From a virus (taxonomy: Duplodnaviria > Heunggongvirae > Uroviricota > Caudoviricetes): a stretch of DNA of 4,887 bases. Positions 1 through 4,887 of the stretch are shown here, in pieces. A model generated the notes under the pieces. The model was not told the origin of the DNA and made no database searches. It saw only the letters and a list, made by a program, of their open reading frames with translations. Position numbers and translations under genes: made by a program. Within the stretch, counting starts at the first letter, position 1, and every line of letters begins with the position of its first letter. The stretch lies in the IMG/VR virus record IMGVR_UViG_2734482592_000014. One strand, written 5' to 3'.

Positions 1-672
1 ATGGCAGCGACGCACACACTCCCTCTGGCGTCACCGGGCATGGCACGCATCTGCCTTTACGGGGATTTGCAACGATTTGGCCGCCGCATCGACCTTCGTG
101 TGAAAACGGGTGCCGAAGCCATCCGGGCGATGGCCACACAGCTCCCTGCGTTTCGTCAGAAGCTGAGCGACGGCTGGTATCAGGTGCGTATTGCCGGGCA
201 GGATGTTAGCACGTCCGGATTAACGGCACAGTTACATGAGGCTCTGCCTGACGGCGCTGTGATTCATATTGTTCCCAGAGTCGCCGGGGCCAAGTCAGGT
301 GGTGTATTCCAGATTGTCCTGGGAGCAGCCGCCATTGCCGGATCATTCTTTACCGCCGGAGCCACCCTTGCAGCATGGGGGGCTGCCATTGGTGCCGGTG
401 GTATGACCGGCATTCTGTTTTCTCTCGGTGCCAGTATGGTGCTCGGCGGTGTGGCTCAGATGCTGGCACCGAAAGCCAGAACTCCCCGCACACAGACAAC
501 GGATAACGGTAAGCAGAACACCTATTTCTCCTCACTGGATAACATGGTTGCCCAGGGCAATGTTATGCCTGTTCTGTATGGTGAAATGCGCGTGGGGTCA
601 CGTGTGGTATCTCAGGAGATCAGCACGGCAGACGAAGGGGACGGTGGTCAGGTTGTGGTGATTGGTCGCTGA
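1..672 (+). CDS. I: Tail tip assembly protein I (lambda gpI family), complete
   Basis: ATG at 1 to TGA at 670-672, 223 aa. The translation MAATHTLPLASPGMARICLYGDLQRFGRRIDLRVK...GDGGQVVVIGR matches my recollection of phage lambda gpI almost residue for residue, including the Gly/Ala-rich hydrophobic segment (GAAAIAGSFFTAGATLAAWGAAIGAGGMTGILFSLGASMVLGG). Position directly upstream of J matches lambda gene order. Its RBS would lie upstream of the window. Confidence 0.9.
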   Translation: MAATHTLPLASPGMARICLYGDLQRFGRRIDLRVKTGAEAIRAMATQLPAFRQKLSDGWYQVRIAGQDVSTSGLTAQLHEALPDGAVIHIVPRVAGAKSGGVFQIVLGAAAIAGSFFTAGATLAAWGAAIGAGGMTGILFSLGASMVLGGVAQMLAPKARTPRTQTTDNGKQNTYFSSLDNMVAQGNVMPVLYGEMRVGSRVVSQEISTADEGDGGQVVVIGR

Positions 673-694
673 TGCAAAATGTTTTATGTGAAAT

Positions 695-711
695 CGCCTC
701 CGGGCGGTTTT
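695..711 (+). terminator. Short hairpin plus T-run in the I-J spacer (weak terminator-like or attenuating structure)
   Basis: CGCC-TCCG-GGCG (695-706) forms a 4-bp GC stem with a 4-nt loop, followed by G and TTTT (708-711). The stem is short, so function is uncertain. Confidence 0.2.
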
Positions 712-720
712 ATCGTTTAT

Positions 721-724
721 GGAG
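721..724 (+). promoter_or_regulatory. Shine-Dalgarno sequence for J
   Basis: GGAG located 8 nt upstream of the J ATG at 733. Confidence 0.5.
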
Positions 725-732
725 CATGACGA

Positions 733-3700
733 ATGGGTAAAGGCAGCAGTAAGGGGCATACCCCGCGCGAAGCGAAGGACAACCTGAAGTCCACGCAGCT
801 GCTGAGTGTGATCGATGCCATCAGTGAAGGGCCGGTTGAAGGTCCGGTGGATGGATTAAAAAGCGTGCTGCTGAACAGTACGCCGGTGCTGGACAATGAG
901 GGGAATACCAACATCTCCGGCGTCACGGTGGTGTTCCGGGCAGGTGAGCAGGAGCAGTCACCGCCGGAGGGATTTGAATCCTCCGGCTCCGAGACGGTGC
1001 TGGGTACGGAAGTGAAATATGACACGCCGATCACCCGGACCATCACGTCGGCAAACATTGACCGACTGCGTTTTACCTTCGGTGTACAGGCACTGGTGGA
1101 AACCACCTCAAAGGGAGACAGGAATCCGTCTGAAGTTCGCCTGCTGGTTCAGATACAGCGTAACGGTGGCTGGGTGACGGAAAAAGACATCACCATTAAG
1201 GGCAAAACCACCTCGCAGTATCTGGCCTCGGTGGTGGTGGATAACCTGCCGCCGCGCCCGTTTAATATCCGGATGCGCAGAATGACGCCGGACAGCACCA
1301 CAGACCAGCTGCAGAACAAAACGCTCTGGTCGTCATACACCGAAATCATCGATGTGAAACAGTGCTACCCGAACACGGCACTGGTCGGCGTACAGGTGGA
1401 TTCGGAGCAGTTCGGCAGCCAGCAGGTGAGCCGTAATTATCATCTTCGCGGGCGCATTCTGCAGGTGCCGTCGAACTATAATCCGCAGACGCGGCAATAC
1501 AGCGGTATCTGGGACGGAACGTTAAAACCGGCATACAGCAACAACATGGCCTGGTGTCTGTGGGATATGCTGACCCATCCGCGCTATGGCATGGGGAAAC
1601 GTCTTGGTGCGGCAGATGTGGATAAATGGGCGCTGTATGTCATCGGCCAGTACTGTGACCAGTCGGTGCCGGACGGCTTTGGCAGCACGGAGCCGCGCAT
1701 CACCTGTAATGCCTGGCTGACCACACAGCGCAAGGCGTGGGATGTGCTCAGTGATTTCTGCTCGGCGATGCGCTGTATGCCGGTATGGAACGGGCAGACG
1801 CTGACATTCGTGCAGGACCGACAGTCGGATAAGGTGTGGGCCTATAACCGCAGTAATGTGGTGATGCCGGATGATGGCGCGCCGTTCCGCTACAGCTTCA
1901 GCGCCCTGAAAGACCGCCATAATGCCGTTGAGGTGAACTGGATTGACCCGNNNNNNNNNNNNNNNNNNNNNNNNNNNNNNNNNNNNNNNNNNNNNNNNNN
2001 NNNNNNNNNNNNNNNNNNNNNNNNNNNNNNNNNNNNNNNNNNNNNNNNNNNNNNNNNNNNNNNNNNNNNNNNNNNNNNNNNNNNNNNNNNNNNNNNNNNN
2101 NNNNNNNNNNNNNNNNNNNNNNNNNNNNNNNNNNNNNNNNNNNNNNNNNNNNNTCAGCGTGGGTGCTGAAGGGCTTCGTCATGTACCGGGCGATGTCATT
2201 GAAATCTGTGATGATGACTATGCGGGTATCAGCATCGGCGGGCGCGTGCTGGNNNNNNNNNNNNNNNNNNNNNNNNNNNNNNNNNNAACGGCTGGGAGAC
2301 GGCGACAGAGCTTGTGGAGGACACGCAGGCCATTGCCCGTTACGGTCGTAACGTCACGAAGATGGATGCCTTTGGCTGTACCAGCCGGGGGCAGGCACAC
2401 CGCGCAGGGCTGTGGCTGATTAAAACAGAACTGCTGGAAACGCAGACCGTGGACTTCAGCGTGGGCGCAGAAGGGCTTCGCCATGTGCCGGGCGATGTCA
2501 TTGAAATCTGTGATGATGACTATGCCGGTATCAGCACCGGCGGGCGCGTGCTGGCGGTAAACAGCCAGACCCGGACGCTGACGCTCGACCGTGAAATCAC
2601 GCTGCCATCCTCCGGTACCATGCTGATAAGCCTGGTTGACGGAAGTGGCAATCCGGTCAGCGTGGAGGTTCAGTCCGTCACCGACGGCGTGAAGGTGAAA
2701 GTGAGCCGTGTTCCTGACGGCGTTGCTGAATACAGCGTGTGGGGGCTGAAGCTGCCGACGTTGCGCCAGCGCCTGTTCCGCTGTGTGAGTATCCGTGAGA
2801 ACGANNNNNNNNNNNNNNNNNNNNNNNNNNNNNNNNNNNNNNNNNNNNNNNNNNNNNNNNNNNNNNNNNNNNNNNNNNNNNNNNNNNNNNNNNNNNNNNN
2901 NNNNNNNNNNNNNNNNNNNNNNNNNNNNNNNNNNNNNNNNNNNNNNNNNNNNNNNNNNNNNNNNNNNNNNNNNNNNNNNNNNNNNNNNNNNNNNNNNNNN
3001 NNNNNNNNNNNNNNNNNNNNNNNNNNNNNNNNNNNNNNNNNNNNNNNNNNNNNNNNNNNNNNNNNNNNNNNNNNNNNNNNNNNNNNNNNNNNNNNNNNNN
3101 NNNNGCTGACAGTCCGGGCGGTAAATGCCTGGGGACAGCAGGGCGATCCGGCGTCGGTATCGTTCAGGATTGCCGCACCGGTAGCACCGTCGCGGATTGA
3201 NNNNNNNNNNNNNNNNNNNNNNNNNNNNNNNNNNNNNNNNNNNNNNNNNNNNNNNNNNNNNNNNNNNNNNNNNNNNNNNNNNNNNNNNNNNNNNNNNNNN
3301 NNNNNNNNNNNNNNNNNNNNNNNNNNNNNNNNNNNNNNNNNNNNNNNNNNNNNNNNNNNNNNNNNNNNNNNNNNNNNNNNNNNNNNNNNNNNNNNNNNNN
3401 NNNNNNNNNNNNNNNNNNNNNNNNNNNNNNNNNNNNNNNNNNNNNNNNNNCGTGGATAACGGGGCGCACTTTGACGGCGACCAGAGCGGCACGGTGAATG
3501 GTGTCACGCCGCCAGCGGTGCAGCACCTGACTGCCGAAGTCACCGCAGACAGCGGGGAATATCAGGTGCTGGCGCGCTGGGACACGCCGAAGGTGGTGAA
3601 GGGCGTGAGCTTCCTGCTCCGTCTGACCGTAACAGCGGATGACGGCAGTGAGCGGCTGGTCAGCACGGCCCGGACGACGGAAACCACTTACCGCTTCACA

Positions 3701-4887
3701 CAACTGGCGCTGGGGAACTACAGGCTGACAGTCCGGGCAGTAAATGCGTGGGGGCAGCAGGGCGATCCGGCGTCGGTATCGTTCCGGATTGCCGCACCGG
3801 CAGCGCTGTCGCGGATTGAGCTGACGCCGGGCTATTTTCAGATAACCGCCACGCCGCATCTTGCGGTTTATGATCCGACGGTACAGTTTGAGTTCTGGTT
3901 CTCGGAAAAGCGGATTGCGGATATCAGGCAGGTTGAAACCACAGCACGCTATCTTGGCACGGCGCTGTACTGGATAGCCGCCAGTATCAATATCAAACCG
4001 GGCCATGATTATTACTTTTATATCCGCAGTGTGAACACCGTTGGCAAATCGGCATTCGTGGAGGCTGTTGGTCAGCCGAGTGATGATGCATCCGGTTATC
4101 TGGATTTTTTCAAAGGCGAGATAGGGAAAACCCATCTGGCTCAGGAGCTGTGGACGCAGATTGATAACGGTCAGCTTGCGCCTGACCTGGCTGAAATCAG
4201 GACGTCCATTACGGATGTCAGCAATGAAATCACGCAGACCGTCAATAAGAAACTGGAAGACCAGAGTGCGGCAATTCAGCAGATACAGAAGGTTCAGGTT
4301 GATACAAATAATAACCTGAACAGCATGTGGGCTGTGAAGCTGCAGCAGATGCAGGACGGACGCCTTTATATCGCGGGTATTGGTGCCGGTATTGAGAACA
4401 CCCCTGACGGCATGCAGAGTCAGGTGCTGCTGGCGGCGGACAGGATTGCGATGGTTAATCCTGCGAATGGCAACACAAAACCGATGTTTGTTGGTCAGGG
4501 CGATCAGATATTCATGAACGACGTGTTCCTGAAACGCCTGACGGCCCCCACCATTACCAGCGGTGGAAATCCATCGGCATTTTCCCTGACTCCGGACGGA
4601 AAGCTGACCGCTAAAAATGCGGATATCAGTGGCAGTGTGAATGCGAACGCCGGGACGCTCAACAATGTCACGGTAAATGAAAACTGTACGATTAAGGGCA
4701 TGCTGGAGGCGACTCAGGTCAGAGGTGACTTCGTTAAAGCTGTATCCAAATCATTTCCGAAACAGGCTGGTACGTGGGGTAACACGGAAACACCAAACGG
4801 GACGGTTACAGTCACCATAAGCGATGATCATAACTTTGACCGCCAGATTATTATTCCGCCCATTATTTTTAACGGTATAGCGTATGA
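733..4887 (+). CDS. J: Tail tip attachment / host specificity protein J (lambda gpJ family); 5' end complete, 3' end beyond window, interrupted by N runs
   Basis: ATG at 733 sits 8 nt after GGAG (721-724). Readable segments: A 733-1950 ([34 protein letters not shown]...[11 protein letters not shown], phase 1), B 2287-2804 ([20 protein letters not shown]...[10 protein letters not shown], phase 1), C 3452-4887 ([25 protein letters not shown]...IIFNGIAY, phase 2, no stop before window end). All three are collinear with lambda gpJ as I recall it. Phase differs between B and C because the N-run lengths are not true lengths. Confidence 0.9.
1951..2153. other. N run (203 nt), assembly gap or masked sequence inside J
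   Basis: Contiguous n characters; starts on a J codon boundary after ...WIDP. Confidence 0.95.
2154..2252 (+). repeat. 99-nt island between gaps: diverged copy of J segment 2456-2554
   Basis: Manual alignment to 2456-2554 gives 6 mismatches in 99 nt. In the coding phase ([32 protein letters not shown]) 5 are synonymous and 1 changes Thr to Ile. The island is in phase 2, while flanking J segments A and B are in phase 1. Confidence 0.85.
2253..2286. other. N run (34 nt), assembly gap or masked sequence
   Basis: Contiguous n characters. Confidence 0.95.
2805..3104. other. N run (exactly 300 nt), assembly gap or masked sequence inside J
   Basis: Contiguous n characters; round length suggests a placeholder or estimated gap. 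Confidence 0.95.
3105..3200 (+). repeat. 96-nt island between gaps: diverged copy of J segment 3724-3819
   Basis: Manual alignment to 3724-3819 gives 7 mismatches in 96 nt. In coding phase ([31 protein letters not shown]) 5 are synonymous and 2 are nonsynonymous (V/A, P/L versus AAPAALSRI in the main copy). Confidence 0.85.
3201..3450. other. N run (exactly 250 nt), assembly gap or masked sequence inside J
   Basis: Contiguous n characters; round length suggests a placeholder or estimated gap. Confidence 0.95.

Follow-up and report, generated by a model that had tools for sequence, protein, structure and literature searches.

The 3′ end of the prophage J gene in the DNA analysed here (the window, the whole stretch of 4,887 nucleotides of IMG/VR record IMGVR_UViG_2734482592_000014) very probably codes for a C-terminal receptor-binding domain of the phage-434 class, which a conserved lower-fibre block connects to a lambda-like tail-tip hub. 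The receptor of this J would most likely be OmpC and not LamB.

Gene layout and completion of J

The window contained the following features.

1–672, + strand: gene I, tail assembly, 223 aa, an ORF directly 5′ of J
733–4887, + strand: gene J, tail tip/central tail fibre and host specificity (ATG at 733; translations and colinear blastn matches)
1951–3450, no strand: assembly-gap zone within J, with N-runs and two misplaced islands
4155–4480, + strand: alternative alpha-helical-shaft/upper fibre module (no blastn match to lambda, lambda h434 imm21 or 434; protein alignment)
4505–4660, + strand: conserved lower-fibre block of 52 aa, ending in NANAGTL, common to lambda, 434 and the window J
4661–4885, + strand: the first 75 of 164 class-differing residues, 434-type, J residues 1002–1076 (protein alignments)

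From the start of I on, positions 1–1950 were 95.5% identical to lambda DNA (blastn; lambda 774 onward), and the segments of the window were colinear with J of lambda, 434, phi458 and LD93-1. Identity to lambda DNA was ~94–95% over 1–4154 and 89.5% over 4481–4709, and no lambda match was found by blastn at 4155–4480 or 3′ of 4709. The operon position was that expected of J, with I before J in the window and a Lom-like ORF after J in contig L011, phi458 and LD93-1; in L011 and LD93-1 a long side-tail-fibre ORF came after the Lom-like ORF.

J left the window at residue 1076 of 1165. A species-representative genome collection, searched for an exact 121-nt match, had none, and the J 3′ end was taken instead from IMG/VR viral contigs by exact-match scans. 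These scans gave 16 loci, eight of them 100% identical to window 3451–4887, and in contigs L008, L009, L020 and L021, which were among the eight, J was extended to its stop codon, yielding 164 residues from NNVTVNENC onward. L008, L009 and L020 had no N-runs, were 99.8% identical to window 1–1950 and contained an intact 1165-aa J. The completed J (L008) matched NF049904 lambda_TipJ over residues 1–1165 with 2314 bits (cut-off 1950), and six Pfam gpJ domains were above their cut-offs, namely FNIII-A, Phage-tail_3, two Ig_J domains, Phage_Tail_Tip and Ig_GpJ_C. The last of these (PF12421, labelled “C-terminal receptor binding domain” in Pfam) was located at residues 1029–1164 (E = 3.2e-25), residue 1029 corresponding to window 4742. 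By its profile matches, the J of the window is a member of the lambda TipJ/gpJ tail-tip family.

In the alignments J is a four-part mosaic of a lambda-like hub with FNIII part, another and longer shaft module, a conserved lower-fibre joint and a 434-type receptor domain. The shaft module (4155–4480) had no blastn match to lambda or 434 DNA at E 1e-10 and carried 28 extra residues, J being 1165 aa long versus 1132 in lambda and 1137 in 434. The same module occurred in phi458, LD93-1 and IMG/VR contigs. In lambda, the AHS comprises residues 809–861 (PMC11101478). The lower-fibre block (4505–4660) was identical to lambda at 50 of 52 residues and to 434 at 47 of 52, and is the usual recombination joint 5′ of the receptor-binding module. 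Within this otherwise conserved block, codon TCG at 4574–4576 gave GGNPSAF, as against GGNPPAF in lambda, phi458 and LD93-1 and GGSPPVF in 434; a 40-nt pattern across the codon was matched exactly in 16 IMG/VR contigs.

Sequence class of the receptor-binding domain

An earlier note, made from the window alone, had quoted 75 residues after the conserved block and placed them at 4660–4887. Exactly these residues were found in frame 2 at 4661–4885 (N codon 4661–4663, Y codon 4883–4885), running off the window end, where 4886–4887 (GA) formed a partial codon; the first codon began one base later than the note had it, at 4661. The lambda string given in that note was an exact match to J residues 974–1047 of NC_001416. 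The note had described conserved residues giving way to a homologous but heavily diverged part, and the alignment agreed with this, 50/52 identity to lambda being followed by 37/72 (51.4%, with two gap columns) over the 75 residues. The same 75 residues were identical at 69 positions (92%), gap-free, to J of phage 434 and of lambda h434 imm21, and at 75/75 to J of phi458 and of an E. coli LD93-1 prophage. The blastn match to lambda ended at 4709, whereas that to lambda h434 spanned 4481–4887 at 91.2%.

As the note had stated, the extreme C-terminus was outside the window, which held 75 of the 164 residues, J ending at residue 1165. The full 3′ end, the alignment of which to J proteins of known receptor specificity the note had proposed, gave 155/164 identities (94.5%, gap-free; 86/89 in the part beyond the window) to J of 434 (OmpC), 74/167 (44%) to the A8 gpJ domain (OmpC) and 64/170 (38%, 17 gap columns and indels at four sites) to lambda J (LamB). 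In a phmmer search of PDB with the completed domain, A8 gpJ was the best-scoring solved structure (9WCA, E = 1.7e-34) and lambda gpJ (8XCJ/8XCK) was matched with E = 6e-26; both solved domains aligned to query positions 1–163. The fold of the receptor domain is fixed, at the level of sequence matches, by these two solved gpJ domains, and the homology to lambda J is far above chance.

Relative to lambda, the 434 class aligned with indels of +2 at the ~1012 loop, +6 at ~1044–1048, +1 at ~1078 and +2/−6 around 1099–1113. The first (GTWGN) was inside the window; the second started just before the window end (IAY, 4877–4885) and continued past it, and the remaining ones were visible only in the completed sequence. 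A LamB-type domain of the lambda kind would show high identity to lambda J 974–1132 without loop indels, but identity was 51% within the window and 38% over the complete domain. Identity to the A8/phi330-type OmpC domain was likewise low (44% to A8, 44.8% to phi330), and only the 434-type (h434) domain agreed both in gap-free identity and in the class-specific indels. The earlier note had ascribed the divergence to substitutions; the divergence was confirmed, but not as substitutions on a lambda background, a whole module having been swapped for a known allele class.

Receptor and alternative readings

Phage 434, and lambda with the 434 tail-fibre gene, bind OmpC and not LamB (PMC3509688, PMC11101478, PMC12502783), and published genome sequences exist for both 434 and lambda h434 imm21 (PMC9119081). 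OmpC is the most likely receptor here because the domain is 94.5% identical to J of 434, a reported OmpC user. The sequenced lambda h434 imm21 hybrid had a J 3′ part of 434 type; its 434-derived DNA started at J nt ~2133 and continued past lom and stf, so OmpC use cannot be assigned to the last 164 residues from this hybrid alone. In the literature, no receptor assays were found for the nearest relatives (phi458, cdtI, mEp460, mEp332, PhiR phages and Stx2c phages), and of the 434-type members, the window variant included, only 434/h434 turned up with adsorption or knockout results. A receptor-prediction preprint (10.64898/2026.04.02.716166) dealt with Drexlerviridae-type GpJ and left out lambda-type C-termini.

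If the domain works as in lambda gpJ and 434, the central tail fibre would end in three Ig-like domains whose distal loops would enter a trimeric outer-membrane porin, OmpC in the 434 class, from its extracellular side. Porin binding would spread the domain bases, twist the beta-prism fibre and flip the helical shaft, upon which the tail tip would open and DNA exit; this triggering movement is the one seen in the lambda structures (PMC11101478). The loops longer than in lambda (the GTWGN-containing loop and IAYDDPGSGNNPGG, the latter starting just before the window end) are likely receptor contacts, and segment KIFQKGNQGAGN may be a further contact with OmpC. An AlphaFold3 model cited for 434 predicted an extra loop touching OmpC (PMC12502783). 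Virions of this prophage would adsorb to OmpC-bearing E. coli with no need of the maltose regulon.

The window is a draft scaffold, and the gap zone of J contained four N-runs (1951–2153, 2253–2286, 2805–3104 and 3201–3450; 203, 34, 300 and 250 nt, respectively) and two islands of ~100 nt (2154–2252 and 3105–3200), which duplicated other J segments out of order. By blastn, the first island matched phi458 J sequence downstream of the expected place, and the second matched contig L002 at 5325–5420, past position 5052 where window 3451 resumes. Only 2287–2804 was in register, and the zone took up 1500 positions versus 575 nt in closed relatives. The pattern suggests that short reads from several prophage paralogues of J were scaffolded together. 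The segment 2287–2804 had no match at ≥98% in contigs otherwise 99.8–100% identical, and on this evidence a different copy of J may be its source. Four sister scaffolds, L012 (IMGVR_UViG_2698536366_000004, 13.8 kb), L006, L013 and L015, had two or three tandem J 3′ fragments and N-runs; in L012 a lom-sized ORF followed each fragment, and in L006 the reading frame passed from one J C-terminus directly into a second, 434-type J copy. The tandem fragments probably arose by the assembly artefact seen in the window, though they may be real tandem prophage remnants.

The N-runs, the misplaced islands, the unmatched segment and the same tangling in the sister scaffolds could be taken to mean that J is a remnant without function, or that the assembly has merged several prophage copies of J, in which case the domain would be uninformative on a live phage; a 488-nt query from the 3′ end of J, too, matched a median of two, and up to 12, places per E. 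coli genome. Such a reading is improbable, since the J frame was open in every non-N segment, the gap-free contigs L008, L009 and L020, 99.8–100% identical to the flanking segments, held an intact J, and the last 1437 bases (3451–4887), including the start of the receptor domain, were one unbroken stretch. The scaffold copy being broken by gaps, we infer from these near-identical closed contigs that J is intact in the source genome. The earlier note had proposed a receptor other than LamB or, alternatively, a variant LamB. A drifted lambda-type LamB binder would share fold and family with lambda gpJ, as this domain does, and the visible part was still 51% identical to lambda, but this reading is very improbable given only 38% identity over the complete domain, indels at each of the four specificity hot spots, near-identity to an OmpC-using phage and a lambda DNA similarity that stopped at 4709. 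The proposal of another receptor is thereby supported by the comparison with 434, its LamB alternative becomes unlikely, and OmpC can be named as the candidate. High identity of the whole C-terminal domain to lambda gpJ, which the note had named as evidence against its proposal, was not what the completed sequence showed.

A 434-like domain might also have been retargeted by its substitutions to a porin other than OmpC (OmpF, LamB or a further OMP), be dual-specific or be limited to some OmpC alleles. The window variant differed from 434 by nine substitutions, six of them in domain positions 31–46 and 135–142, which align with the lambda loops around 1012 and 1107 (loops assigned from where the indels lie and from the hot spots published at 1012 and 1107), where receptor-switch mutations are located (PMC6646904). 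Porin specificity is labile in the J family, one J mutation enabling phage 21 to use OmpC and four enabling lambda to use OmpF, and the OmpC-binding gpJ chimeras A8 and 1A2 accept different OmpC alleles. Retargeting is nevertheless unlikely: no indel interrupted the alignment with 434, phages recorded on K-12-type hosts have the variable sites in common and in reassorted combinations, and natural changes of J receptor class go with indels at a set of four hot spots (PMC6646904), none of which separates the window variant from 434. OmpC remains the most likely receptor. With six of the nine differences in loop segments and porin choice shifting with one to four mutations, fine specificity, e.g. 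for certain OmpC alleles, may differ; there is a slim chance that the window variant is tuned to another OmpC allele set or has gained a second porin, and if so, the 17 variable sites of the family described below would be a natural map of OmpC-allele specificity.

Distribution and comparison with known systems

With the completed 495-nt domain as query (coverage ≥80%), a 434-type domain was found in 2092 of 5426 complete E. coli genomes (~39%), nearly all at 90–99% identity. At ≥90% protein identity it was present in 74 phage records, the carriers including Stx1a- and Stx2c-converting phages, cdtI, mEp460, Evi, 2B8, Tritos and PhiR34_1. Among 11 family members compared, 17 of 164 sites were variable, there were no indels and alleles were reassorted, indicating one recombining allele pool; this fits a single pool with one receptor. 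In Stx2d_112808 the first half of the domain was 434-like and the second half window-like. Recorded propagation hosts of members included E. coli K-12 (PhiR34_1) and MC1061 (phi458). Two receptor-domain residues distinguished the laboratory h434 allele from wild-type 434: position 77 was D in 434 and N in h434 (J nt 3148), and position 142 was R in 434 and W in h434 (J nt 3343). Both positions were among the 17 variable sites, W142 also occurring in a Stx2c phage, and they may be relevant to host range.

For annotation, the prophage J is to be described as a 434-type, probably OmpC-dependent host-specificity protein and not as a LamB binder, with a predicted host range unaffected by maltose-regulon mutations. 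Earlier work has documented the allele class and its receptor, as well as the exchange of the J specificity region as a module, and the finding is an ordinary one.

Compared with J of phage 434 (OL657226, UMO75286) and the h434 allele of lambda h434 imm21 (OM418627), the 164 C-terminal residues were 94.5% identical and gap-free. The J proteins of 434 and of the window share the indel pattern relative to lambda, the Ig_GpJ_C domain and lom after J; they differ by the nine domain substitutions and by the upstream shaft (4155–4480), which is of another type in the window and makes J 28 residues longer (1165 versus 1137 aa). The receptor domain of lambda gpJ, a LamB binder (PDB 8XCJ, 8XCK and 8IYK), belongs to the same family and fold, and hub and fibre up to window 4154 were ~94–95% identical in DNA; in contrast, the domain itself was 38% identical, with indels near lambda 1012, 1044–1048, 1078 and 1099–1113, and its receptor is probably different.

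The A8 gpJ/phi330 domain (PDB 9WCA and 9WCB) binds OmpC, as shown by experiment, and sits on a lambda-like J. At 44–45% identity to the window domain it forms an allele class of its own, the 434-type loops being longer (GTWGNTETP and IAYDDPGSGNNPGG). The engineered A8 domain (9WCA) and the phi330 J C-terminus were nearly the same sequence, and both are OmpC-dependent. Since this domain uses OmpC and is ~45% identical to the 434 class, at least two J domain classes use OmpC. The Eligo OmpC-targeting gpJ chimeras A8 and 1A2 were considered as possible carriers of the window allele, and this was ruled out, their supplement sequences being different from it, with A8 matching phi330.

The J “specificity region” (lambda residues 960–1132) has been described as a module exchanged independently among 1207 natural homologues (Maddamsetti et al. 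2018, PMC6646904), its natural lineages being defined by indel hot spots at 1012, 1048–1049, 1077–1078 and 1107. The region in the window falls within lambda 960–1132, behaves as a module open to exchange, has indels relative to lambda at or near all four hot spots and does not differ in kind from these modules; it is one of the lineages already covered by Maddamsetti et al.
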